Below are positions 4,141 through 16,297 of a DNA stretch of 38,198 nt, piece by piece; position 1 is the first letter of the stretch, and each line of letters begins with the position of its first letter. The stretch is from Nitrospirales bacterium (GTDB lineage Bacteria; Nitrospirota; Nitrospiria; Nitrospirales; UBA2166). The translations under genes were made by a program, and so were the position numbers. The DNA lies in the NCBI GenBank assembly GCA_012965905.1, contig DTRN01000059.1, forward strand, positions 1-38,198, given 5' to 3'. Below the pieces are notes generated by a model. The model was not told where the DNA came from. It searched no databases and saw only the letters and a program-made list of their open reading frames with translations.

Positions 4141-4188
4141 TTGGTGGCGGTGGATGGTTTCGAACCCCCGGCCAGCGGTTTATGAGTA
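4141..4188 (-). repeat. Partial copy of the 3' half of tRNA-Met(CAT), from the CCA end to the anticodon; distal att-type direct repeat of the island
   Basis: ttggtggcggtggaTggtttcgaacccccggccAgcggTttatgagt at 4141-4188 matches 16221-16268 (ttggtggcggtggaGggtttcgaacccccggccCgcggCttatgagt) at 45/48 positions in the same orientation. Weaker similarity (GCGTAA...GTTGAA) continues about 20 nt to the left of both copies. There is no 5' half, so this is not a functional tRNA. Confidence 0.8.
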
Positions 4189-4399
4189 GATTTGAATGGA
4201 ATTTTATAACCCATTGATTTGAGGATGGTATCTCGCTTTATCTTCCCGCTCAGTGGATTATACGCATTGTATAGATCACATCTATTGCTATATTTCATAT
4301 CCTTTCAGACATTTTCTGTTACAGGTTTGTCGCAGTCAACTACGTAAGAGCGACGCAAGCCTGCTTGTCGCTGGCTGGAGAAATGTCCCCCTGATGCAA

Positions 4400-6544
4400 C
4401 TAGATTCCATCCTTGGAATCTCTGAGCACTTTCGCGTCCTTTTTCTCGAGGGCTTTAGGAAAGGCAAGCAGAGCATTCGGATGGCGTTCAGCAATATTCC
4501 CAACGTGGTAGTTATGGCATGATATACACATGTCTCCAGCTTTTTCGGCCACATGACAAGTCACACAAAGGGACTTCTCTATATGGTTAAAGCTGCTTGC
4601 GAAGGTTTGAGGGTCGTTGTCTTCGTACCCTGCCATCACATCTGCTTCTGAATTCAGAACATGACAAGCGTAACAGCCCCTGTCCCTAACAAGGCTCAAG
4701 TGTGGCGAATGGACGAAGGTCGTGAACTTCTGCACATTTGGCACCGGCTGTGCTGTGTGCCACTTCACTTGGGCTTTTTCCGCTCGACTATCCACACTGT
4801 GGCATTTCATACAGACCCCTGGCGCTTTAGCGCCTGAGAGCGTCGAAAATATCTCGTTCACGACATCCGAAGTAGCTGGCTGCTCTGCCAAAGGCGAGAG
4901 ATCGATCCAGCCACGAATGAACTCATCGGCATGACCGGTCGGACGGAACAGGATGGAAAAGTCCGCATCCTGTCGATACCACCCACCCATCTTGACCCAC
5001 CGTTCGCGATCTTGATCTTTACCCATATTTAGATCTAGCTCTTGCATATCAGACATAGGTACCATTGCATGGGCTCTGTGACTTAGCACTTCGGTCGATA
5101 ATTTTGGCAACCATTCTTGCTGCGCTGCTTGGATAACCTCAATGGGAATATGTCCTGTCAAATTCCCGAGTTTGCTATTGCTGTATGGCTCATTCGCTAT
5201 CTTGCTGAGCCGCGAAACGTAAGCTTCTTGTCCTTTAGAGACCATATCGTAGAACAGCCCCTTTATCGCCCATATAATCTGAGCGATAGCGGCAAGTTCT
5301 TCCTCGGTGGCATCTGATAAATCGGTGAATTCGTCAAAGTCACCGACCGTTTCCAGGTAGTCAACGATAGTCCCATCGGTGTACAATAGAAGCTTCATGA
5401 AGGGGGTCAGGCCTTGTTCGACATTGTAGTCAGCGGGCCATTCTCCGACCGAGATCCCTTGCTCTGTTAGTACGTCAACATCCAATCCTGGAAGTCTGAA
5501 AAAAGGGATGCCTCGTGCCCCTGCCAGACCCTCTCCCTCAATCTGGTGTACATGGCATGCAGCACATGTCGCATCAAATGATCCCACCCGCATGGTTTCG
5601 CCAAGCTGATCCATCATATGGCAGGCCGTGCAAGTGGTCGGGGCCTCATCCTTGAAATCGCCAAGAAAGTGCTTCGCGAGATGGGAATTATGATCAAAGG
5701 CTATTTGCGTACGGCGCTCAGTGGGATAGCTGGAAAACTGTGGATGCCCCTTCGTCAAACTCGAAAACTTTATGATGTGGCAAGTTTGGCAACGCTGGTT
5801 ATCCATAGTCATCAGTTTGAAGTCTCTACCATGATGTTCTGAGTGACACCTTGCGCAAGGCACCTCGCTACCTTCCGTGTACAAGGTCCCTGGAAGCCAG
5901 TCTGATGATGCTAATAAAACCGGGGTCTTCTCAGAGAACGGAGCCTCTTTCAAGCGTTCTGTGATCGAGGTCAAGGCTTCAGTGGACCGACCATGAGCCT
6001 GCAATGGCTGCTCTCCAACTTGATGGCAGCTCAGGCAAAGTTTGCTTCCTTTAGCCTTCGACTCTGAAGCATAGATCGATGCCACCCAACTGATTGGTCC
6101 TTCGTGGGCCGCAGCATGACAAGAGGCACAGTCCTTACCTATAGCACCGTGATTTATGGATAGCTCACCTGGGGAAAAAAACTCTTGCGCATCTGAACCG
6201 AAGAGGACAAGGAGTGATGCCCCAATTGTGAAAGCAACCGTCCAGACCGTGGCAATTCCTCGCTTGGCTCGAAGACTCCTGCTGGGCTGACACTTGGGTA
6301 TGTGTACGGAGCAGGTACCATTCGGAAGGGGGCCCTGGGTACATTTCCCCTTGCGGTCGGAAGAGCGGGTACAAGACCACCGATCGCCATCCTTTAGTGG
6401 GAGGCATTCTGTGGTCGCCAGACATTGCCCGTTCTTGTCAGGGCCAATGTGACAAGCCCAACCCTCGGCAGCCCATCCACAAACCCAGTTCTGGGTTGGT
6501 CGTTCATATTGACTGTTCTTGAATCCATAATCCTGTAACTTCAT
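4400..6544 (-). CDS. membrane-anchored decahaem c-type cytochrome with a Cys-rich N-terminal module
   Basis: Ten CXXCH motifs: CASCH, CLSCH, CARCH, CQTCH, CTACH, CAACH, CMKCH, CYACH, CVTCH, CISCH. There is a haem-free insert of about 200 aa between haems 6 and 7. The N-terminal 85 aa carry 8 Cys, followed by RSLRAKRG and one TM helix (IATVWTVAFTIGASLLVLFG). The ATG lies 2 nt after the stop of the upstream gene. Confidence 0.9.
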   Translation of the reverse strand: MKLQDYGFKNSQYERPTQNWVCGWAAEGWACHIGPDKNGQCLATTECLPLKDGDRWSCTRSSDRKGKCTQGPLPNGTCSVHIPKCQPSRSLRAKRGIATVWTVAFTIGASLLVLFGSDAQEFFSPGELSINHGAIGKDCASCHAAAHEGPISWVASIYASESKAKGSKLCLSCHQVGEQPLQAHGRSTEALTSITERLKEAPFSEKTPVLLASSDWLPGTLYTEGSEVPCARCHSEHHGRDFKLMTMDNQRCQTCHIIKFSSLTKGHPQFSSYPTERRTQIAFDHNSHLAKHFLGDFKDEAPTTCTACHMMDQLGETMRVGSFDATCAACHVHQIEGEGLAGARGIPFFRLPGLDVDVLTEQGISVGEWPADYNVEQGLTPFMKLLLYTDGTIVDYLETVGDFDEFTDLSDATEEELAAIAQIIWAIKGLFYDMVSKGQEAYVSRLSKIANEPYSNSKLGNLTGHIPIEVIQAAQQEWLPKLSTEVLSHRAHAMVPMSDMQELDLNMGKDQDRERWVKMGGWYRQDADFSILFRPTGHADEFIRGWIDLSPLAEQPATSDVVNEIFSTLSGAKAPGVCMKCHSVDSRAEKAQVKWHTAQPVPNVQKFTTFVHSPHLSLVRDRGCYACHVLNSEADVMAGYEDNDPQTFASSFNHIEKSLCVTCHVAEKAGDMCISCHNYHVGNIAERHPNALLAFPKALEKKDAKVLRDSKDGI

Positions 6545-6546
6545 GG

Positions 6547-7386
6547 TTAGGAACTACTCTCCCTGTACGCCGACGCGAGAGCTCCGTGAATCAGTGAGAG
6601 GATTAAAAGGCTGTAGCTCAGGGGAATGTGGATAAAGAGCCAATATTTGAGCACCAGCTGGTGCGCATTGTGATAATCCAGGTCATCTTTGGCCAAAATA
6701 AGAGTTCCAATTTCTTGAGCAATTTTCCGTTCGCTCTCATTGAAATAGCGATCTTGCGATTGCAGTTTGGTCAACAATTCATCACGAGGGCGATGAGACC
6801 CTATCAGATGCCAGAAAAAATTCTTGGGTCCTTCCAAAAAAGGTATCACCTGATTTGTCAAGACACGTCGGCTGGAGAAATCGGCAATCGTTGTGGAACC
6901 CATCTCCGCAGCTGAGCGCACGAGAAGGTCTTCGACGTCCTCACGAAGATGCTTTCGCATCGCTGGAATTCTCTCAAAAATGACCTCTCTACCCCTCATT
7001 GCAAGTCGCCGTGAATACCATCTCGTCAATCCAATTCCTGTAATTCCGCTCCCAGCAACCACCACGTAAAGCAGCGCGAGCGTTCCCTCAATCCAACCAT
7101 TGGGGACATGCAGCCCAATATGAATAGCGAACAGGACAAGAGTGAGATATCCTATGTAAATATGAAATTGCAACCAGCTGGATGAAGTTCCTAAGGGCAG
7201 GAAAGGCAACTTTTTTCGGACATTGTAGCTAGCCAAAGCCAACAGGACAAAGAATAGAAGCCAGCCAGAGAAGAACACCGTGCGATACAGGGTTACAGAG
7301 TAGGCGAAGTGGATTCCGACGATCAGAATAGAAAGAGCACCGCAGATGACAAGATTGCGCCATCGGCGAGATGCAAAGGAGGTCAC
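6547..7386 (-). CDS. 5-TM integral membrane protein with two H-x13-H helices (putative dihaem cytochrome b-like electron-transfer subunit)
   Basis: ORF 6547..7494. The likely start is the GTG at 7386, which overlaps the upstream stop (TAGTG). An ATG at 7455 is an alternative start. Hydrophobic helices: LVICGALSILIVGIHFAY, FFSGWLLFFVLLALASY, WLQFHIYIGYLTLVLFAIHIGLH, GTLALLYVVVAGSGITGIGL and, after a soluble loop of about 130 aa, YWLFIHIPLSYSLLILSLIHGAL. TM3 and TM5 each have two His separated by exactly 13 residues. Confidence 0.8.
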   Translation of the reverse strand: MTSFASRRWRNLVICGALSILIVGIHFAYSVTLYRTVFFSGWLLFFVLLALASYNVRKKLPFLPLGTSSSWLQFHIYIGYLTLVLFAIHIGLHVPNGWIEGTLALLYVVVAGSGITGIGLTRWYSRRLAMRGREVIFERIPAMRKHLREDVEDLLVRSAAEMGSTTIADFSSRRVLTNQVIPFLEGPKNFFWHLIGSHRPRDELLTKLQSQDRYFNESERKIAQEIGTLILAKDDLDYHNAHQLVLKYWLFIHIPLSYSLLILSLIHGALASAYRESSS

Positions 7387-9098
7387 TAATTGGGTCCGTT
7401 CGATAGCGAAAATAAATCTGACATATCTATCCGCTGTAAGGCGTCGTGGGGACATGCGCGTTGGCAAGCCGGCCCACCCAGCTGGTCCACACAAAGATCA
7501 CACTTCGTAGCTTTCAAAATGGGAGCGTGGGTGCGCTCGTCGAGAATTAGGTGTCCGTTCTCATCGCGAATGTCAACCATCTGAATGTTGTCATACGGAC
7601 AGCTATTCGCACAGGTGCTACAACCTACACAAGTGGTGTCGTCGATGACAACGTGCCCGTGAAACCCCTCACGGTGGATTGCCCCTGTAGGACATCCAAT
7701 GAGACAAACAGGATCGACGCAATGCATACACGCATTGGCTATCAAATACTTGCCATCCCGCTTGCCATGCCGGGTGAAACGGGGATTATTTTCGTGAGCG
7801 GTAGCACAGGCACGCACGCAATCATCACAGCCAGTACAGCGATCGAGATTGATCATCATGGTGGACGTGCCGTTGATAAACCGCTCATCCACAAGGAATT
7901 CCAGGAAGTCTGGATCAATTCTCCTTTCGTGTTCCCGATCCCTTTGCACGGGAACATGCCTGGTATTCGAGGGGACAAGCGGTCGGAGTTGCGCAGATGG
8001 TAAAGAGGGAAGCACCAAAGATTCAATCACGTGAGTTGGTACCAAGAGAATGTCCACGTATCCAATAGCACGCAGCGTGTGCTTAAGGGATATCCGGGCT
8101 TCGCTTTGCCAATTATGCTCGATTTCTTCAAGGCCGTAGATCTTGCCTCGACCAAGGTAAGTGAGCGTGCGGTGTCCGTGCCCGAACTGCTGACTCAACC
8201 GTACGAATCCAGAGCGAATCAGAATTAATCCATTGGGATAGTGCCCTTCTTCCGCAATAATCGGCTCGTGATCCAGGCGTTCCGCCGCACTGCGACTCAT
8301 GATTGCCTTATACGGACCATACCAGTCGAAATCCCCATAGCTCTGGAATTCAACTTGATTAGCCACCTCTTCCAACTGCTCCAACGTCAGGTGCTGGAAG
8401 AGCGGCGTTTGTAGAAGGTGGACTTTCAGGTTCCTTTCACGATAGCGAGCGTCAATATCTTCCTTCAACCGCTGATCAAAGAGGCGTAAGCGCCTTAGTC
8501 CTTGCCAGCGAATTTCCAAAAGCTCTGTCTCTTGGTCAGCAACAATAGTGGCGGTCCGGGCAACGCGACCAAGTGCAGAGATTTCTCCAAACAGGTCTCC
8601 CACTTCTATTCGGTTGGTTTCATACTCCCCCAGAATTACGGGGAGGTCTTGCAAAAACACATGAGCATTCCCCGCTTTGTCATATCTGGTTTTGACCCGG
8701 GAAACCCCTGTATCTGGCGAAAGAGTGCGTTCTTCCGGCTGCGTGGGATTGCGCCATAACTGGGCGATGGCATTGAACAAACCTTTTCTCCGAGGCTCTT
8801 TTCGGCCCAAGATCGACTTTGGTAGATTGAGGAAAACCTGGACTGATCCGGACATGATAAAGTATGCAGAGTTTCCATAATCGCCTTCTCGCACCACAAT
8901 GTCCCCCGCTCGGTACCGAAGAATGCGAGTGTCATTCAGCAGGATCTCTCGTAACGGAGCGTGGGAAGGAAATTTCGCCGGGTCCATATGGCTGAAAGGA
9001 GGGAATGTTAAAACTCTATCGACATCCTCTTCACTCGTTTCATGACTAAACGGCATATCCAAACGAGCAGGACGTTGGATGCGTACATTCAGTGTCAT
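7386..9098 (-). CDS. cytoplasmic fusion protein: two cyclic-nucleotide-binding (cNMP/CAP-effector-like) domains plus a DmsB/NrfC-type four-cluster [4Fe-4S] ferredoxin domain
   Basis: ATG at 9098 with an AGGGGG RBS. First cNMP domain: ILRYRAGDIVVREGDYGNSAYFIMSGSVQVF ... FGEISALGRVARTATIVADQETELLEI. Second, more divergent cNMP-like barrel: GLILIRSGFVRLSQQFGHGHRTLTYLGRGKIYGLEEI. The C-terminus has 16 Cys in four motifs: CTGCDDCVRAC, CMHCVDPVCLIGCP, CVGCSTCANSCP, CDLCVDQLGGPACQRACP. There is no twin-arginine signal at the N-terminus. Confidence 0.88.
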   Translation of the reverse strand: MTLNVRIQRPARLDMPFSHETSEEDVDRVLTFPPFSHMDPAKFPSHAPLREILLNDTRILRYRAGDIVVREGDYGNSAYFIMSGSVQVFLNLPKSILGRKEPRRKGLFNAIAQLWRNPTQPEERTLSPDTGVSRVKTRYDKAGNAHVFLQDLPVILGEYETNRIEVGDLFGEISALGRVARTATIVADQETELLEIRWQGLRRLRLFDQRLKEDIDARYRERNLKVHLLQTPLFQHLTLEQLEEVANQVEFQSYGDFDWYGPYKAIMSRSAAERLDHEPIIAEEGHYPNGLILIRSGFVRLSQQFGHGHRTLTYLGRGKIYGLEEIEHNWQSEARISLKHTLRAIGYVDILLVPTHVIESLVLPSLPSAQLRPLVPSNTRHVPVQRDREHERRIDPDFLEFLVDERFINGTSTMMINLDRCTGCDDCVRACATAHENNPRFTRHGKRDGKYLIANACMHCVDPVCLIGCPTGAIHREGFHGHVVIDDTTCVGCSTCANSCPYDNIQMVDIRDENGHLILDERTHAPILKATKCDLCVDQLGGPACQRACPHDALQRIDMSDLFSLSNGPN

Positions 9099-9130
9099 AG
9101 CATCGTACCCCCTATCTAAATTTATCGATC

Positions 9131-10189
9131 CTATTTTCCAGGCGGAGCTTTCCCGGGTTTTCCTTTGTACTTATCGGCTGTGGGAAGTACCTTGTCTATT
9201 GCTGCCCACTCGCTTCCGTCGTAGTTATTCGCTACCTTTTGAGCGACAGCCCGAATTTTGTCGGCTGCTGGCGTAATCTGGGCTTCTTGGTTGGCGCCCA
9301 ACTTGACCTTTGCAGCAATGGCCAACATTTCCTTAAGTTCAGAAATTGTGACGAGCCCATGAATTTTTTTTAATTTACCCATTGCTTTCCCAACGCGCTT
9401 CACCATCGCCTCCAAGAATGTACCTTTCTCGGTGGCCTTGGACAGGGCACGGAGGCTGTACTCCAAGTCAAGTGACGCTCCAACCACGTATAACATCCGT
9501 TTACGCTCAGACGAAGCTTCCGTGTTCTTTTTTCCTCCCGAGCTGAAAAAATTATGGCGGACTTCGCCTTGCGACCACGCTACGAGATCAAATTCGCTCC
9601 CTGCTTTATGTCCTCCTACGTTGACCAGATGCTCGTTTGGTATCGTGTGACATTGGAAGCAGTTCGCCGCTAATCGGTAGAGTTCAGGAGGTCGGATCAT
9701 GCCGGAGGCCTTTATCGCTGCCAAGCGTTTAGCCTTGTGTTCAGGGGTTTCCATCTCACGTGTGACTGTCTTACCCCCATAATCACTGTGCACTTTAAGC
9801 CAATCCTTCGCGGGACCATGACAGGACTCACAACTAATTCCAACAATCGCCTTGCTCTTCCCTTTCTTGATGCCCGAGGTGAAGTGGCAATTCAAACACG
9901 CGCTGTCCTTTTTCATGCGTTTGACGCCCAGCTTTTCTGCGACCTCCTTGGCCTCTTTCTTACGCGGCAATTCTTTAAAGCTCCTGGAATGTTTGGTTTC
10001 TCTCCAGGTGTGCACCTCAGCCTTATGGCATTCGCCACATTCCTTCGGTCCCACGATTTTCTTGGGATCTTTTTCAGGCATGGCATTGGATTCAACACCC
10101 GATCCCGCCGCCAATAAAAGGACGATGGCTCCAATGGCAAGTCCTACCCATCCTAGCCATGATTGACCCCGTTCCTTGACTTGGTTCAT
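9131..10189 (-). CDS. secreted tetrahaem c-type cytochrome (c554-like multihaem family) with a helical, Lys-rich C-terminal half
   Basis: ATG with a GGAGGAG RBS. Signal or anchor segment WLGWVGLAIGAIVLLLAAGSG. Four CXXCH motifs (CGECH, CLNCH, CESCH, CFQCH). About 150 aa of haem-free C-terminus ending KYKGKPGKAPPGK. Confidence 0.9.
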   Translation of the reverse strand: MNQVKERGQSWLGWVGLAIGAIVLLLAAGSGVESNAMPEKDPKKIVGPKECGECHKAEVHTWRETKHSRSFKELPRKKEAKEVAEKLGVKRMKKDSACLNCHFTSGIKKGKSKAIVGISCESCHGPAKDWLKVHSDYGGKTVTREMETPEHKAKRLAAIKASGMIRPPELYRLAANCFQCHTIPNEHLVNVGGHKAGSEFDLVAWSQGEVRHNFFSSGGKKNTEASSERKRMLYVVGASLDLEYSLRALSKATEKGTFLEAMVKRVGKAMGKLKKIHGLVTISELKEMLAIAAKVKLGANQEAQITPAADKIRAVAQKVANNYDGSEWAAIDKVLPTADKYKGKPGKAPPGK

Positions 10190-10261
10190 GTTTTACTCCT
10201 CCATTTAGACCATTGCGGCAATTCGCTTCCTACTCGTTCAGGGATTTCCTGCGCGAATCCG

Positions 10262-11569
10262 TCATGCATCTAGCGTCACATGCCCTTTTGGTATGGCTAT
10301 GCAAGGGAAGCAAGAGCCGGCCTCGGGTGCAACACCAGGCTCAGTCATGTAGGTGACGTCCCCTGCTTTAATTGCAGTGAGACATGTCCCGCAACTGCCA
10401 GCACGGCAGCCGAAGTCAATTTGGACAGCGTTCCCTTCAGCAAGCTCTAACAGCGAACCGTGCTTTTGATCCCATTGGCATCGTTTCCCTGTTTTCGAGA
10501 AAAAGACTTCAACTTGCGTTGCATCAGCTAGTCGTGGTGGTGGCGCGGCAGTCTTTTTTACCGTAGCCGAGCCAAAGGCTTCAAAAAAGATCTTGTCCTC
10601 TGGAATCCCCCACACCTTAAGTTGCTTGGTCAACGAGTCCATCATCGCCGGTGGCCCACAGAGGAAGAACTCATAATTGTTAGACGGTAATAGGCCTCGT
10701 AGCAAGTCCACGCTGACCCGTCCCGAATGATCGTAATCCTCCCCAATCACATCCGCGTCAGAAGGTTGGCTATAGCATACATGCACGTGCACATTGTGAT
10801 ATTGGCGATTCAGTTGGGCCAGATGATCCTTCATAATATGCTCGGTACCATTGGATACCCCATAGAATAACCATACCTCACGGGTTGTAGCAGCACCCTC
10901 AGTAATACTGTTGAGCATGCTGAGAAGGGGTGTGATGCCTACACCACCCGCAACAAACGCAACTGGAGCGGCGCTTGTCAGATCGAGAAAAAACTTTCCG
11001 CTCGGCGCTTTGACGTCGAGGATATCACCTTCCTGGAGATGATTGTGAAAGTACGAGGAGACCAATCCTGCCGGCACATCTGGGTTATCGCTTGGTGAGA
11101 GTTCCCGTTTAATGGTGATGCGGTAATAGTCTGATTGAGTGGGGCTGTCGGAGAGGGAATAACATCGCACTACCGGTTTTGTGGTGTCGGGAATATGAAG
11201 CTTAAAGACTAAGTGTTGGCCAGGTTGGAAGCGAGGTAGCGGCTTTCGATCATGAGGTGCAAGGTAGAATGAATAGACATCGTGACATTCACGTACTTTT
11301 TGCCGAACCACGAATTTTCGGAACCCTCCCCAAAATCGTTTTTCGTCTTCCTGCCCAACTTTAAGTGTTCTGGCAGCTTCTACCCGACAGCGCAACAACT
11401 CTAGCGCTAGAGTGCGTCGTTGTCGTTCATAGGTCACACGATGCCATGTAGAAACCAAGAATAGGACTACTTGCGCCAAGAGGGCGCCAATAATTATTAC
11501 GCCAATGGTCTGTACTATCACTGCCACGAGCTTAAGCCCTGAGATAGGAGGGGCATCTTTGCGCTCCAA
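10262..11569 (-). CDS. membrane-anchored ferredoxin-NAD(P)+ reductase-type flavoprotein with a C-terminal plant-type [2Fe-2S] domain
   Basis: N-terminal TM helix (LKLVAVIVQTIGVIIIGALLAQVVLFLV). FAD motif RCYSLSD. NAD(P)H motif GGVGITPLLS. FLCGPPAMM. C-terminal CRAGSCGTCLTAIKAGDV...C (CX4CX2C...C). The start codon is non-ATG (TTG at 11569, or GTG at 11527), so the 5' end is uncertain. Confidence 0.85.
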   Translation of the reverse strand: MERKDAPPISGLKLVAVIVQTIGVIIIGALLAQVVLFLVSTWHRVTYERQRRTLALELLRCRVEAARTLKVGQEDEKRFWGGFRKFVVRQKVRECHDVYSFYLAPHDRKPLPRFQPGQHLVFKLHIPDTTKPVVRCYSLSDSPTQSDYYRITIKRELSPSDNPDVPAGLVSSYFHNHLQEGDILDVKAPSGKFFLDLTSAAPVAFVAGGVGITPLLSMLNSITEGAATTREVWLFYGVSNGTEHIMKDHLAQLNRQYHNVHVHVCYSQPSDADVIGEDYDHSGRVSVDLLRGLLPSNNYEFFLCGPPAMMDSLTKQLKVWGIPEDKIFFEAFGSATVKKTAAPPPRLADATQVEVFFSKTGKRCQWDQKHGSLLELAEGNAVQIDFGCRAGSCGTCLTAIKAGDVTYMTEPGVAPEAGSCFPCIAIPKGHVTLDA

Positions 11570-11609
11570 TCAAAAAGTTTGCAAAAGAGAATCAGGCGGC
11601 GACGTTTCG

Positions 11610-11625
11610 AGCAACCAGCAGCCCA
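11610..11625 (-). promoter_or_regulatory. candidate sigma-54 (-24/-12) promoter upstream of the reductase/tetrahaem/FeS/b-type/decahaem genes
   Basis: The minus strand reads TGGGCTGCTGGTTGCT, matching TGG-N8-TTGC-W of the consensus TGGCACG-N4-TTGCW with correct spacing. It lies about 40 nt upstream of the TTG start at 11569, inside the only long (227-nt) intergenic gap of the cluster. The match to the CAC part of the -24 element is poor. Confidence 0.3.
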
Positions 11626-11796
11626 TCAAAATGTATATGGTGCCCCGAGCGATACGTCGGCCGTCAACTCAAACTGTTTCACGTGAAGGTGGCTGGTTGG
11701 CAATTAAATAGGACCCTCGAGTATGCTGGCGGCTTAAAAGTGCTTTTGGCTGCTACTCCCGGCACGGTCCTTAGCAATCAATAGCACCTTCTATTT

Positions 11797-13302
11797 TCAA
11801 AACTTCATGAGTAATTCGAGGCGGGCACCATAGCTTAGATTGCGATCTTCCTGCTTTTCACCAAAGAAATCAACTCGTGGGATAAAATGGTGGCCGATTG
11901 CATGTTGATAACGTGCCGCCGCAGCAATGGCGCCTCGGTTAGACAATGGAGTTCCAGTGACCGTATTCTTGCGGCCTCCTACTTCCATCACAAGCTGCCG
12001 ACGGCCGCCATGGAAAAACATTTGATGTCCCAAGCTTCCGCCTGCCGAGTCATCAGCCTGGTTGCTTAGTACAGGTCTAAAACGCCCAAGCCCTACGGCT
12101 TCAAACAAGATACCAGTCCGGCCTAATGGTCCCCCTTGATCAGGGCCACGAATCGCTGAGGAGAACTGATCAATCCCCCAGTATCCATTGAGATAAACGA
12201 GATTGTGGGTGCGTGGTGGTGTAAAGGAAACCTGGCCAGATAACAGTGTTCCTCGGCTCGTTTGTTGCGTCTCTAGATCCGAGGGTATTGATGTATTAAC
12301 CGCCAAAGTCGTATTGAAAAACCCAAATCGCTGAACTCCTTGAATTCCTGCGAAGTACGCGTCACCTGTCACATCACCCGACTCGATGTACACTAGATCT
12401 ACGGAAATTGTGCTGAAAGGAAAATCTGTTTCAGTAAACAAACCGAATAGCTGTGCTTCGCGATCGAGGCGATTATCGTCTCGGTATATGTTGTCCCAGC
12501 CGTAGAGGGCAGTGAGGCGGGCATTCGATGTTCCTGGAAGCTGGAGGTTGTTGCGGACCAAGCCGACGGCGTCAGTATTTCCAAGCCCGCCGGTGCTTAT
12601 TAAGAGACCTTCCTGGAAAAGTAGTGGTTGACGACCGACGGAAAACCCGATATCCAGTGCCCTAGTGTCGCCTTCGTCTAGGCCAGGGAATATCTCGCCA
12701 AAATCTCCTTCAAAGAACAATGTTCTTACCACAGCGTTGAGCTCATCCTCAAAATCTTTCTCTGGCTCAAAGAGATTCCCACTGAATCGATTATCACGAT
12801 CCAGGGGACGAAATGCGACGAGGATGCGTTCCGTACCCGATAACTTCAGATTGCCGAAAATGTCGAGGCGATTAGCCCATTCGGATGTACGAGTGTCATC
12901 GGGCATTTCACCACCCGCCATAAAACCACGCTCAAATGTTTGTACCGCCGTTCGGTATTCCCCGAATACCCATAGGGACGGCCGCCAGACGGCACCAGTC
13001 GGGAGTGTGAATTCTGGACCGAGTGCGCCGGAGTCTAAAAACCTATCCCCAAATTCCAAGAACAACCGGGGCCTTTGGGGAACTTCTTCAATCTGAAGAG
13101 GTAGGGATTCGTCGGACAACCGACTTGCTGATTCGTCCTTTGATTCTTCCTGATGCTTGTTGTCGTCTTCGCTTGTTGCACCGCTCGCTTGCGACTCTGC
13201 ATGAAAGGCGCTGACCTCTCCCACCCCCAAAACCGGAACAGCCGCGAATAACAAGCAGGCGTACACGGCAACAAGGAAATGTACTGATGCCCGGTTATTC
13301 AT
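11797..13302 (-). CDS. putative outer-membrane beta-barrel (porin-like) protein
   Basis: Signal peptide MNNRASVHFLVAVYACLLFAAVPVLG. An acidic linker, then about 400 aa rich in alternating aromatic/Gly/polar beta-strand patterns. C-terminal ...YGARLELLMKF ends in Phe, as in the OMP beta-signal. No CXXCH. Family not recognised. Confidence 0.65.
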   Translation of the reverse strand: MNNRASVHFLVAVYACLLFAAVPVLGVGEVSAFHAESQASGATSEDDNKHQEESKDESASRLSDESLPLQIEEVPQRPRLFLEFGDRFLDSGALGPEFTLPTGAVWRPSLWVFGEYRTAVQTFERGFMAGGEMPDDTRTSEWANRLDIFGNLKLSGTERILVAFRPLDRDNRFSGNLFEPEKDFEDELNAVVRTLFFEGDFGEIFPGLDEGDTRALDIGFSVGRQPLLFQEGLLISTGGLGNTDAVGLVRNNLQLPGTSNARLTALYGWDNIYRDDNRLDREAQLFGLFTETDFPFSTISVDLVYIESGDVTGDAYFAGIQGVQRFGFFNTTLAVNTSIPSDLETQQTSRGTLLSGQVSFTPPRTHNLVYLNGYWGIDQFSSAIRGPDQGGPLGRTGILFEAVGLGRFRPVLSNQADDSAGGSLGHQMFFHGGRRQLVMEVGGRKNTVTGTPLSNRGAIAAAARYQHAIGHHFIPRVDFFGEKQEDRNLSYGARLELLMKF

Positions 13303-13349
13303 GGGTCTTGGTTGTTAATTAGAGAGACGGTATGGACGCAAAGCCCTGG

Positions 13350-15164
13350 TTAATATTGGTTCTTGTGAACATCATGAACATCAAAGGCTATATCACGCTC
13401 CCATAGCACCACATGTCCAGCTAACACCCCATCCGCAACTTTCCTAGGGCTCATGCCGTAGTCAAAGCCAACATCTTTGATCTCGTTGATCAAATTGACC
13501 GGCACCATACCGACAATCAACTCAATATGAGCTTTGTAAGGTCCCCTCAGGGTCAACGCTAACCCTTCCACCTCATATGTCGCCCACCGACTGCCGTTGG
13601 GTTCGATCATCATCCGATGTTTTCGCACATTGACTGGGCGTCCGATTAACACATTGGACTGTGTTAAAGGACGCAAAAATGGTAGCGGATCAAATGATGT
13701 GTTGACGGATAATACCTGCTCGCTCTCACTTCCACGGAGATTTCGTGTAATAAATTTAGACTGAAGATTGAACAGATATCGATCAAGAGGCAGTTCACCG
13801 TTGTGCACGTAAACAGAGTGAATATCCCGCAGATCTCCGTTTGGGTCGGCATCTCCAGATTTGAAAACAGAGGTGCCATCCCGATCCGAAACCGTGACGC
13901 GCAGATAGACAAGACGCTCGGCGTCAAAGCCCGTAGGCACGCCGTGTCCATCCGTCCCACTTTTCACCTGCACTCGGAAACGGAGACCATCTCCATCCGC
14001 CTGATCAGTCACGATCTTGCCAAGTCGGAACCCTTCCTGCAACACCTTTTTCCTTTGCAAACCATACTCATCTAATAATGCAAACTGATCGTCAAGAATT
14101 TCACGAGCATCATAGCGGTCGTCTGTAGAAGACCATCGATCTGGAAACGCGTCATCGTCAGGATCCTGGTCTTCAAACTCGTCTGTTCCCCAACCAGCCT
14201 GATGATCGAAGGCTAGCCATTCCCGAATAGTCGCGAATTCCGCAGCGTCTATATTGTGCGGGAAAATCCCGGGATGTATGACAGAATGGTCGGGCCCAGG
14301 GAACATGTGATTGGTGCGTTTCCGAGATCTGGTTTCTACCCCACCCACTCGGGCGGCAGATGCATGAACATAGCCCGATGACTTTCCCGGCTTCCGGCCC
14401 ATATGGCAGTCCTGACAGGTGATTCCCTGCCTGGCAGCTGGCGAGGTCTTATATTCGCTGAAGGCTTCTTCCAGCCGGAACCCGTTAAGCAAGTTTACGT
14501 CATGGCATGAACCGCAGAATCCCGGTTCGCTCAGCGACGGAAAAAGTTTCACCTCACCGTGGATGGCTCGTCCGACTTCGCCGCGTTCTGGATTGACCTG
14601 ATACTCGTCACTTCCTAACACACGCTTGAGCTCCTCGTTGCCTTTGGGGCCATACACTGGGTCAAATAGGTCGCCTTCTACAATCTTGAGGCGTCCACTC
14701 TCTTTCCCGTAGGCTTGATCAACTCGATGGCAGACGACGCACGTGATGCCTTCACGAGAAGTAGGATGTCGGTCGATGTTGCTCATAAATAGGGGTTCCC
14801 CCAAATTCATTCCTACTTGAGTATGACAGCGAATGCAGAAGTCCCCATTGGTACCGTTGGTGAGCTTAAGAATGGTGCCGTGCATCGCGTTGAACACCGG
14901 GCTCATCTGCGCATATGCATGAGGAGAAACCGACCACTCTCGGTAATGATCCGCATGACATGTTTGACACGTTGAGGCTGATGGGTAACGGTTTTCCAAG
15001 AATAATTTTTCATGGGCAGCTTCGGCTGATTCTTCTAGAGTTTCTGAAGATTCCTCCTGAGATAACGCCATATCGATATATGCGAAGCACAGCACCCCTA
15101 TCAGAAGCAAAACCAAGGGAATCCCAATGCGCCTGGAAAGCACTATCAAACTTGTAAATGCCAT
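13350..15164 (-). CDS. secreted pentahaem c-type cytochrome with a large haem-free C-terminal domain
   Basis: ORF 13350..15170. The ATG at 15164 is preceded by GGGAGG. Signal-like segment IGIPLVLLLIGVLCFAYIDMALS. Five CXXCH motifs in the first 260 aa or so (CQTCH, CIRCH, CVVCH, CGSCH, CQDCH), then about 340 aa without haem motifs. Confidence 0.9.
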   Translation of the reverse strand: MAFTSLIVLSRRIGIPLVLLLIGVLCFAYIDMALSQEESSETLEESAEAAHEKLFLENRYPSASTCQTCHADHYREWSVSPHAYAQMSPVFNAMHGTILKLTNGTNGDFCIRCHTQVGMNLGEPLFMSNIDRHPTSREGITCVVCHRVDQAYGKESGRLKIVEGDLFDPVYGPKGNEELKRVLGSDEYQVNPERGEVGRAIHGEVKLFPSLSEPGFCGSCHDVNLLNGFRLEEAFSEYKTSPAARQGITCQDCHMGRKPGKSSGYVHASAARVGGVETRSRKRTNHMFPGPDHSVIHPGIFPHNIDAAEFATIREWLAFDHQAGWGTDEFEDQDPDDDAFPDRWSSTDDRYDAREILDDQFALLDEYGLQRKKVLQEGFRLGKIVTDQADGDGLRFRVQVKSGTDGHGVPTGFDAERLVYLRVTVSDRDGTSVFKSGDADPNGDLRDIHSVYVHNGELPLDRYLFNLQSKFITRNLRGSESEQVLSVNTSFDPLPFLRPLTQSNVLIGRPVNVRKHRMMIEPNGSRWATYEVEGLALTLRGPYKAHIELIVGMVPVNLINEIKDVGFDYGMSPRKVADGVLAGHVVLWERDIAFDVHDVHKNQY

Positions 15165-15507
15165 TGGCAACCTCCCTGAAAATCAGGACTGAAAGACAGT
15201 TTTAGTTATTTTTGGCAATAAATTATGAGCGTCTTCTTTTTTAAAATCAAGTTATGGCGTTGTTGCATAATTCTAAAACCCACTACACTTTCGACCGTTT
15301 GTGTATGCTCAGAGAATCCTCTCTGACACCGCCTCCGTCTATTCGATAGGTCAGAAATCCAGGGAACCAGCGGGCCGTGGTGCCCGCCTCGCGATCAATG
15401 ACGCGCCAACTATACCCGATAACAGTAGGCATTCTCCGAGCTTTAGCCTGTGCACGAAAAAAAATACGCTTGATCAGGGCCGAGTGGAGTCCATAGCATC
15501 AATATGA

Positions 15508-16207
15508 AGAAGGAAGCTCAACTCCATTAAGACAGCAGACCTGGAAGAAGCGAGGAAAGGTTTGTTTGCCAACAAGCTTACCCTTCAAAGGGTCAACCGA
15601 TATATGGCTAGGTTGCCGTGTAAGCTGAACCTGGCGGTTCGTGCTGGTAAATTGCACGGCAACCTAGTGACGAAGCTGAAAATGTATAAGGAGCCTCAAG
15701 GGAAAACGAGATTTCTCTCACCCGAGGAGGAGTCCAAGGTAATGGCCGCACTAGGTCCCATATATGGCCATTGGGTGGGGTTGGCCATTCACACGGGTAT
15801 GAGACAGGCGGAGCAGTTTTCATTCTGATGGGAGAATGTTGATCTGGAGCGCAGGATCAATACGCTACCAGTACTTCTATGCACGTAGCTGGATGCCTGC
15901 AGTGCAGGAGGGAGGGATTGAGTGGATAACGTGGCATGATCTACGCCATACGTTCGCGTCTCGCCTGGCTATGAGTAGTGCGACTGAGGAGACGATAGCC
16001 GCCCTCATGCGCCATAGTAGTAGTGCATTGGTAAAGCGATATGCACATTTTTCGCCGTCGTATCTCCAGGAAGCCGTTGAATGGGTATCGAGCTTTGGTC
16101 GGGCCACGAACTCAGCAGAACGTGCGCCGCAAGAAGACCCGATTTCAATCCTAACCGTGACTGAGACCAGAATAGCAGGGGATCAGGAGAAGGTGGACGT
16201 TGCGTAA
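15508..16207 (+). pseudogene. tyrosine recombinase (phage-type integrase) remnant: N-terminally truncated, with an in-frame stop, an internal deletion and a frameshift
   Basis: Frame 1: ...LQRVNRYMARL..NLAVRAG...FLSPEEESKVMAAL...LAIHTGMRQAEQFSF-TGA-WENVDLERRINTLP. The frame then switches to frame 2: ...AVQEGGIEWITWHDLRHTFASRLAMSSATEETIAALMRHSS..LVKRYAHFSP. Catalytic Arg (TGMR), HxxR (HDLRH) and Tyr (RYAH) are recognisable. Only about 45 aa separate Arg-I from HxxR, where about 100 or more are expected. The open frame starts only at 15508. Confidence 0.8.
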
Positions 16208-16221
16208 ACCGTTGAAAAGAT

Positions 16222-16297
16222 TGGTGGCGGTGGAGGGTTTCGAACCCCCGGCCCGCGGCTTATGAGTCCGCTGCTCTACCAACTGAGCTACACCGCC
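16222..16297 (-). tRNA. tRNA with CAT anticodon: elongator tRNA-Met, or possibly tRNA-Ile2 (lysidine); not an initiator
   Basis: The reverse complement GGCGGTGTAGCTCAGTTGGTAGAGCAGCGGACTCATAAGCCGCGGGCCGGGGGTTCGAAACCCTCCACCGCCACCA folds as a cloverleaf: 7-bp acceptor stem, GCTC/GAGC D stem, anticodon loop CTCATAA, GGGGG/CCCTC T stem, encoded CCA. G1-C72 is paired and there is no GGG/CCC anticodon stem, so it is not tRNA-fMet. Confidence 0.9.

Follow-up and report, generated by a model that had tools for sequence, protein, structure and literature searches.

The question raised by this locus is how electrons could cross the inner membrane in a cluster of seven genes whose other products are multihaem cytochromes c, a putative outer-membrane barrel, a flavin- and iron-sulfur-containing reductase and a cytoplasmic iron-sulfur protein. 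The cluster lies on the minus strand of contig DTRN01000059.1 from a Nitrospirales bacterium (assembly GCA_012965905.1; the whole stretch of 38,198 nucleotides that we analyzed is called the window below), and is transcribed in the order ptdA, ptdB, ptdC, ptdD, ptdE, ptdF, ptdG. PtdF is the only plausible inner-membrane electron gate of this cytochrome cluster, and its most likely cofactors are two b-type haems, one above the other in the membrane, a prediction made from its sequence and those of its relatives. A first-pass annotation, written from the DNA letters alone, had singled out this gene as encoding a five-transmembrane protein with two helices that each hold two histidines 13 residues apart. 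That observation is confirmed here; it is an independent rediscovery, since the dihaem prediction for PtdF is already known, both the idea and the motifs having been published in 2017 (PMC5566968). The gene is the following:

6547..7386, minus strand: ptdF, the "IMP" (inner-membrane protein) gene of the published PCC4 cluster; 279-amino-acid protein with five transmembrane (TM) segments, a predicted dihaem cytochrome b (open reading frame and translation)

The gene starts with a GTG (7386-7384) that overlaps the TAG stop of the upstream iron-sulfur gene ptdE (TAGTG), and its TAA stop (6549-6547) is followed, after 2 nucleotides, by the ATG (6544) of the decahaem gene ptdG; both junctions lie where the first-pass annotation had put them. 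The frame is open upstream as far as a TTG at 7494, and a public gene call of 302 amino acids is on record; the N-termini of 42 homologues line up with the GTG, so that the 279-residue protein is the likely product.

Hydropathy and the helices of an AlphaFold2 model agree on five TM segments in PtdF (approximately residues 12-32, 37-57, 68-92, 98-120, and 246-272), as had been claimed, and the two claimed H-x13-H pairs fall in the third and the fifth of them. The elements of the protein are as follows:

7216..7353, minus strand: TM1 (residues 12-32) and TM2 (residues 37-57), from AlphaFold2 helices, conservation and charge counts
7111..7185, minus strand: TM3 (residues 68-92), with W71-x3-H75-x13-H89, from conservation and charge-count topology
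7027..7095, minus strand: TM4 (residues 98-120), with S113-G114-I-T-G117 (SGxxG) close to its cytoplasmic end, from conservation
6652..7026, minus strand: cytoplasmic helical-bundle insert of 125 amino acids between TM4 and TM5, helical in both models (full-length and insert alone)
6571..6651, minus strand: TM5 (residues 246-272), with W249-x3-H253-x13-H267, from conservation

Counts of lysine and arginine place the N-terminus (+3), the TM2-3 loop (which opens with the conserved basic pair R57-K58) and the insert in the cytoplasm, in the window protein and family-wide; the C-terminus is periplasmic, as are loops of only 4-7 residues. With the N-terminus inside, TM3 and TM5 each cross the membrane in the inside-to-outside direction, and for this reason their histidines pair at matching depths: H75 (toward the cytoplasmic face) and H253 are 4-5 residues from the cytoplasmic interface, and H89 (toward the periplasmic face) and H267 are 3-7 residues from the periplasmic one. 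The invariant G41 is close to the periplasmic end of TM2. The full-length AlphaFold2 model is a confident one, with a predicted local distance difference test (pLDDT) score of 91.2 and a predicted template modelling (pTM) score of 0.83, and a separate model of the insert forms a four-helix bundle (pLDDT 80, pTM 0.73). The conserved ERIP141 and K233-D-x-L-D237 of the insert adjoin the membrane. The first-pass annotation had described this insert as a basic loop of about 130 residues, cytoplasmic by the positive-inside rule. Its size (125 residues) and its location agree with our results, and its basicity is mild in the window protein (20 K+R vs 18 D+E; isoelectric point, pI, 9.15) and not a property of the family, in which the median pI is 8.4 and the range is 5-11.5.

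The histidine pattern in the single PtdF sequence is only mildly unusual, and it is conservation that makes it significant. The protein has 11 histidines and three i,i+14 pairs, and shuffled versions of it contain at least two H-x13-H pairs inside TM segments in 0.5% of cases and at least two anywhere in 4.8%. We compared 137 representatives of the family, which share 31-47% identity with the query. Retention of the four histidines among homologues, the check that the first-pass annotation had proposed, turned out to be essentially complete: H75, H89, and H267 are each present in 137/137, and H253 in 136/137. They are also invariant in a set of 43 homologues. The third pair, H239/H253, is not conserved, nor are H26 (in TM1) and H93, while H193 is kept in 79%. 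Around the four histidines, W249, G41, G114, and G117 are invariant (137/137), W71 is present in 136/137, and R57, K58, P95, K233, and D237 are near-invariant. Histidine pairs of the i,i+14 type on two parallel helices, with glycines at matching depth on the flanking helices, are likewise found in the cytochrome b core and in NOX-type domains.

The family is large and widespread. A word-indexed search returned at least 725 relatives of PtdF, almost all of about 274 amino acids and all unnamed. Rhodospirillaceae, Planctomycetota, and Nitrospirales, the kinds of organism named in the papers on PCC4 and Ptd, are represented among the relatives that we collected. An exhaustive search with a profile gave 3069 clusters (sequences grouped at 50% identity) at E<=1e-3 and 502 at E<=1e-30. 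The ptd cluster itself is present in at least 493 species-level genomes, and the 80 best ptd-carrying genomes represent at least 11 phylum-level groups.

The six genes that accompany ptdF in the window are listed in the order of their transcription:

13350..15170, minus strand: ptdA, 606-amino-acid pentahaem cytochrome c with 5 CxxCH motifs (Pfam Cytochrome_C554 and NNT)
11797..13302, minus strand: ptdB, 501-amino-acid putative outer-membrane beta-barrel with a signal peptide and the C-terminus ...LLMKF
10262..11569, minus strand: ptdC, 435-amino-acid reductase of the FNR/PaaE/Hmp type, tethered to the membrane, in which FAD and NAD(P)H domains are followed by a C-terminal 2Fe-2S domain
9131..10189, minus strand: ptdD, 352-amino-acid c554-like tetrahaem cytochrome c with a signal peptide or anchor (Cytochrome_C554, E 2e-15; 4 CxxCH motifs)
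7386..9098, minus strand: ptdE, 570-amino-acid cytoplasmic protein with cyclic nucleotide-binding (cNMP-binding) domains and a DmsB/NrfC-type four-cluster ferredoxin
4400..6544, minus strand: ptdG, 714-amino-acid decahaem cytochrome c with 10 CxxCH motifs, preceded by an N-terminal cytoplasmic cysteine-rich segment and one TM helix

No Pfam family matches the product of ptdB, which is called a porin in published descriptions and is co-conserved with ptdA. PtdC matches FAD_binding_6, NAD_binding_1, NAD_binding_6, and Fer2 in Pfam, and its best NCBIfam matches include the Hmp reductase module (E 1.5e-74), PaaE (E 1e-36), and BenC. In PtdE, 16 cysteines in four cluster motifs form the pattern of a CISM beta-subunit, Fer4_11 (PF13247) matches with an E-value of 7.7e-9, and there is no Tat or Sec signal in the sequence; the published description of the ptd operon gives the iron-sulfur protein two 4Fe-4S clusters. 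PtdC, PtdD, and PtdG have single anchors, and PtdF is the only polytopic membrane protein of the cluster, which makes it the only candidate for carrying electrons across the inner membrane.

The order of these genes is conserved well beyond the window. We counted neighbors of ptdF in the 80 species-level genomes, using as denominators the loci with enough flanking sequence. A multihaem PtdG homologue is directly downstream in 77/77 loci, and the stop of ptdF and the start of ptdG overlap as ATGA in 48 loci. PtdE is directly upstream in 55/71 (two further loci were missed by the distance filter), and ptdE/ptdF overlaps of 4-16 nucleotides are common; a tetrahaem gene takes the upstream place in 11 loci, all from Nitrospirales. 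Of the wide loci, 33/35 encode a PtdC-type protein bearing a 2Fe-2S domain; in about half of the loci, the pentahaem/barrel pair is no more than 10 kb from ptdF. The same gene order as in the window is seen, for example, in L013, L014, L016, L041, L047, and L056. One predicted protein, P0204 (843 amino acids), is a single PtdE-PtdF fusion with cNMP-binding, 4Fe-4S, and five-TM domains (the last at residues 574-841); either a genuine fusion or a frameshift in the gene call could lie behind it, and a similar merged annotation was reported in Oceanospirillum (He et al., 2017; PMC5566968).

Two variants of this arrangement were found. A reduced operon in Nitrospirales (L001-L003, L007, L009-L011, L018, L020, L021, L024, L050, L072, L081) has no PtdE, its PtdC is a 2Fe-2S protein of about 155 amino acids, and the tetrahaem gene stands immediately ahead of ptdF, which it overlaps. 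In other Nitrospirales families, a sister subfamily with 26-29% identity to PtdF (L117-L120, in genomes G022, G013, G045, and G025) keeps the four histidines and the insert, and is flanked by a cNMP/iron-sulfur protein of about 790 amino acids and a multihaem cytochrome. Since the sister subfamily keeps the same trio, the combination of an iron-sulfur protein, the histidine protein and a multihaem cytochrome is an old module.

We also observed a cysteine module in PtdG. Its N-terminus (6260-6544) consists of about 95 cytoplasmic residues ahead of the TM helix, with 8-10 cysteines in the pattern YERPxQxWxCGW...GPLPxGxCC...CQP. The module is kept in most homologues (L008-L086; 9 cysteines in 36, 10 in 10, and 8 in 7), and is gone in part of the Nitrospirales clade that lacks PtdE. 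It may be a metal or iron-sulfur site, on the same face of the membrane as the PtdF insert.

The system has been described before under two names. He et al. (2017; Front Microbiol 8:1584, PMC5566968) described the porin-cytochrome cluster "PCC4", which contains a porin, periplasmic cytochromes with 4, 5, and 10 haems, an inner-membrane protein and a redox gene, and whose subgroup II has a pfam13247 iron-sulfur gene upstream of the IMP. They reported that the IMPs of PCC3 and PCC4 have five TM segments, SGxxG on TM4, and Wx3Hx13H on TM3 and TM5, likened them to the ferric reductase domain and cytochrome b, and concluded that they hold two b haems; for the flow they proposed an extracellular donor and the quinone pool as its end point. 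Elbon et al. (2024; bioRxiv 10.1101/2023.11.21.568154) named the operon ptdABCDEFG, called PtdF "ferric reductase-like", reported ptd in Alpha- and Gammaproteobacteria, Nitrospirales, and Planctomycetes, and called its function completely unknown. The role thus differs between the papers (Fe(II) oxidation to quinone in the former, unknown or Fe(III) reduction in the latter); there is no biochemistry in either, and we found no later experimental work in the literature that followed them.

By published description and motifs, we identify the window protein as this PCC4 IMP/PtdF: it is of similar length (279 residues, compared with about 300), and has the five TM segments, the SGxxG, and the two Wx3Hx13H motifs. 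Around it the window has the porin, the 5-, 4-, and 10-haem cytochromes, the FAD/NAD redox gene, and the upstream pfam13247 gene of subgroup II, and the habitat (marine or hydrothermal) is also alike. Nothing essential is different; the host in the window is a Nitrospirales bacterium with a small genome, and its cluster is located on a tRNA-Met island.

As a whole, we consider it probable that PtdF is the dihaem-b inner-membrane relay of the ptd/PCC4 system, and we prefer an outward, quinone-independent flow of electrons. From the motifs, their conservation, the charge topology, and the order and coupling of the genes, we infer that haem is bound and which partners take part and, most tentatively, which way the electrons flow. 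H75 (TM3) and H253 (TM5) would ligate an inner haem, and H89 (TM3) and H267 (TM5) an outer one; room for the porphyrins would come from G114 and G117 (TM4) at the level of the inner haem and G41 (TM2) at that of the outer haem, as in the four-helix core of cytochrome b. On the cytoplasmic side, the 125-residue helical domain and the basic TM2-3 loop would receive PtdE, which would in turn be fed by PtdC, the membrane-tethered FAD/NAD(P)H/2Fe-2S reductase. At the periplasmic face, PtdF would hand electrons to the membrane-anchored decahaem PtdG, and from there they could reach the tetrahaem PtdD and the pentahaem/barrel pair PtdA/PtdB. The first-pass annotation had proposed a relay of this kind between the cytoplasmic iron-sulfur protein and the periplasmic decahaem cytochrome; its proposal fits the histidine conservation, the gene order, and the overlaps of starts and stops, which support the relay well as a prediction, and the annotation as a whole is partly supported.

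The preferred direction would be from NAD(P)H to an extracellular or periplasmic acceptor, without quinone, following the logic of a "split NOX/ferric reductase". We favor it because the domain order of PtdC and its best matches are those of NAD(P)H-oxidising reductases (the Hmp module, PaaE, BenC), because the cytoplasmic chain offers no obvious low-potential sink except NAD(P)+, and because inward transfer to NAD(P)+ would have to work against the membrane potential as well as against the redox potential that plausible donors have. The four cluster motifs of PtdE, in a protein that carries no export signal, are also counted in support. A further reason is that, to our knowledge, all characterised ferric-reductase-domain (FRD) proteins move electrons outward.

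These FRD proteins (PF01794; NOX, FRE, STEAP, MsrQ) have bis-histidine sites on TM3 and TM5 with 13-residue spacing, on helices that run from inside to outside. PtdF is similar to them in the positions and spacing of its histidines and in its basic cytoplasmic TM2-3 loop, and the ptd cluster offers, as the likely donor, an FNR-type FAD/NAD(P)H module (PtdC, which also matches NAD_binding_6). Unlike FRD proteins, PtdF has five TM segments rather than six and a 125-residue helical insert in place of a short loop; in ptd, the dehydrogenase is a protein of its own that carries an extra 2Fe-2S domain, a four-cluster ferredoxin stands in between, and electrons would go on to a multihaem cytochrome c. 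Ptd has in common with NarH-NarI a cytoplasmic iron-sulfur subunit on a dihaem-b anchor (a predicted one in Ptd); NarI, too, has five TM segments, and NarH belongs, as a four-cluster ferredoxin, to the superfamily of the PtdE C-terminus (NCBIfam). The histidine ligands of NarI are on TM2 and TM5, with spacings other than those of PtdF, and PtdF has no Pfam or PDB match to NarI-type proteins. The Tmc and Hmc/DsrMK complexes of sulfate reducers likewise link a periplasmic multihaem cytochrome c, via a cytochrome b, to a cytoplasmic iron-sulfur protein. However, NarH-NarI, Tmc, and Hmc/DsrMK all run inward or to and from quinone, and PtdE differs by its cNMP-binding domains. Huang et al. (2024; bioRxiv 10.1101/2024.03.13.584918) showed that one DUF4405 protein and FezC bind haem b; DUF4405 proteins have six TM segments and are encoded near apbE, FMN-binding, or flavodoxin genes. 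PtdF resembles them in having four central TM histidines, its Pfam match to them being borderline, and differs in having five TM segments and, among the seven ptd genes, no ApbE, FMN-binding, or flavodoxin domains detected by Pfam.

DUF4405 (PF14358; a model of 66 positions) is the only Pfam family above its cut-off for PtdF, with 27.7 bits vs 26.7 over residues 37-93, i.e., TM2-TM3 only. Below threshold are Cytochrom_C_asm (E 4e-4; 20.5 vs 29.9 bits) and Ni_hydr_CYTB; the Ferric_reduct model (PF01794) does not match the window PtdF, NCBIfam has no match for it, and a profile search of PDB sequences found no relative. The first-pass annotation had spoken of an unrecognised family, which is true of these curated databases and not of the literature, where the protein had already appeared (He et al., 2017; Elbon et al., 2024). 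Across the 137 relatives, DUF4405 matches 21/137 and Ferric_reduct 8/137 (both at E<0.01, the best Ferric_reduct match at 2.6e-4), Ni_hydr_CYTB 6/137, and Cytochrom_C_asm 4/137 (best 2e-5), and every remaining Pfam family matches one member. The weak but non-random matches to DUF4405, Ferric_reduct, and Ni_hydr_CYTB, which are all dihaem-cytochrome families, are a signal of the superfamily and not of the family. A family consensus from which the insert was deleted gave weak matches to DUF4405 (in two stretches) and Ni_hydr_CYTB, both with an E-value of 1.4e-3; these are suggestive only, and the consensus scan did not sharpen the classification.

As an observation on its own, a genome of the same genus as the window's host contains a Ferric_reduct domain fused to a Rieske-type domain in an open frame of at least 440 amino acids (G003:C384, L121). 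This is the only PF01794 match among 61 related genomes, and the G003 assembly is 73% complete.

Several results weigh against the account that we prefer, and they concern both the fold and the direction. Canonical cytochrome b genes that follow Rieske genes (L088-L116) also score 22-28 bits with the DUF4405 model, and the score of PtdF is no better than the best of these cross-matches (27-28 bits). Since the model scores canonical cytochrome b near its own cut-off, borderline DUF4405 annotations are not family-specific, and the match of PtdF places it in a clan and not in a family. When the whole PtdF model was compared with the PDB by Foldseek, no dihaem protein was found (best E 0.68); the top matches were generic helical bundles and the four-helix-bundle (4HB) sensor domains of chemoreceptors. 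The insert model also had no significant neighbor in the PDB, with only generic four-helix bundles returned (best E 0.75), and the insert was not assignable to any known domain or cofactor site. The profile comparison with Ferric_reduct and cytochrome b that the first-pass annotation had suggested came out negative: the PtdF family profile aligned by hhalign with 21 Nitrospirales cytochrome b sequences at a probability of 0.3% (E 0.2), so that no profile similarity to the N-terminal domain of the cytochrome b of bc1/b6f complexes was seen, and with one FRD sequence (a ferric-reductase/Rieske fusion from a related genome) at 0.1%. As to direction, NAD(P)H is not a universal donor, since the Nitrospirales clade without PtdE has nothing of PtdC but its 2Fe-2S part; outward flow driven by NAD(P)H is a direction that we only infer, and the one proposed by He et al. 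(2017; PMC5566968), toward the quinone pool, is its opposite.

The proposal of He et al. is part of the main competing explanation, in which PtdF is a quinone-reactive cytochrome b that passes electrons from an Fe(II)/Mn(II)-type donor, via the barrel and the multihaem cytochromes, to quinone, or works in reverse as a quinol dehydrogenase similar to CymA, NarI, or HyaC. Most prokaryotic dihaem b anchors (NarI, FdnI, HyaC) do exchange electrons with quinones, and the Nitrospirales variant without PtdE shows that the cytoplasmic four-cluster protein is dispensable. The known occurrence, on which the published proposal was based, is also in its favor, as PCC4 was found in Fe(II)-oxidising Zetaproteobacteria and in Hyphomicrobium from Fe/Mn-rich sites (He et al., 2017; PMC5566968), and the window sequence is present in hydrothermal-vent and seawater metagenomes. 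A quinone partner, however, would leave unexplained why cytoplasmic partners are so regularly encoded nearby (the 2Fe-2S protein in 33/35 wide loci and PtdE in 55/71), and also the translational coupling of ptdE and ptdF, the P0204 fusion, and the conserved 125-residue cytoplasmic domain. We identified no quinone-site motif in PtdF, there being no specific motif that could be tested for. On balance, we regard the quinone explanation as unlikely, though clearly ahead of the two that follow.

In one of these, the histidines would handle haem or a metal as cargo, and PtdF would be a CcsA/CcmF-type delivery or maturation factor, or a metal transporter, that serves PtdG. The weak Cytochrom_C_asm matches and the strict adjacency of ptdF to a multihaem cytochrome gene point this way, but those matches stay below the gathering score, PtdF is without a Trp-rich WWD loop, and two i,i+14 histidine pairs at matched depth on parallel helices with conserved glycines form a bis-histidine dihaem pattern. 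Cytoplasmic iron-sulfur and flavoprotein partners, moreover, make no sense for a maturation factor. We rejected the CcsA-like haem-maturation reading on account of the sub-threshold matches, the missing WWD loop, and the tiny periplasmic loops, and a role in handling cargo is highly improbable in general. It is equally hard to give credence to PtdF as a structural or scaffold subunit without a redox cofactor, in which the histidines are kept for packing or for a zinc or iron site. The lack of any significant structural or profile match between PtdF and solved dihaem proteins would be accounted for in that case; on the other hand, no other ptd component can carry electrons across the membrane, and four invariant intramembrane histidines, arranged as W-x3-H-x13-H on two helices, are hard to explain otherwise.

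Building on the dihaem relay with outward flow, we tentatively propose, as a more doubtful step than the relay itself, that Ptd is a quinone-independent "split NOX" spanning two membranes, which would serve the assimilatory reduction of particulate Fe(III)/Mn(IV) or the production of extracellular superoxide, and not respiration. Electrons would pass from NAD(P)H to the FAD and 2Fe-2S centers of PtdC, the four 4Fe-4S clusters of PtdE (possibly gated by a cyclic nucleotide), the two haems b of PtdF, and finally 19 haems c and the barrel. The single TM helix of PtdG could supply the missing sixth helix of a ferric-reductase-like bundle. The users would be mostly aerobic marine and soil bacteria (Planctomycetota, Verrucomicrobiota, Nitrospirales, SAR324, Poribacteria). 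If PtdF indeed links the cytoplasmic iron-sulfur and flavin carriers to the periplasmic cytochromes without quinone, it would be a third general solution for electron export across the inner membrane, beside the CymA/NapC-type quinol dehydrogenases and the NrfD/cytochrome b anchors, and a bacterial counterpart of the eukaryotic NOX/FRE enzymes built from separate subunits. The system is relevant to how iron and manganese are cycled in oxygen-deficient zones and in hydrothermal plumes.

We also looked at the genomic setting of the cluster in the window. The ptd genes are the cargo of a tRNA-Met-associated island (4141-16297), which has the following features:

16222-16297: tRNA-Met gene
4141-4187 and 16221-16267: direct repeat of the 3' half of the tRNA-Met gene, the two copies 12,080 bp apart
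15836-16207: Phage_integrase fragment, an integrase remnant

The GC content of the island is about 0.50, compared with 0.52-0.56 in its flanks, and ptdF is absent from 4/4 genomes of the same genus. The signal for transcription is a single metatranscriptome contig of 237 nucleotides with 97.5% identity, which is too thin to call the operon expressed. The PtdF tree overall follows the phyla closely, and in it the window copy is sister to other Nitrospirota sequences (support 97/94). The window copy has retained all seven genes, and its branch is sister to the Nitrospirales clade with the reduced operon. Recent transfer of the island copy from another phylum was rejected on this placement, and any transfer of the ptd island, given the position of PtdF in the tree, was probably within the phylum.

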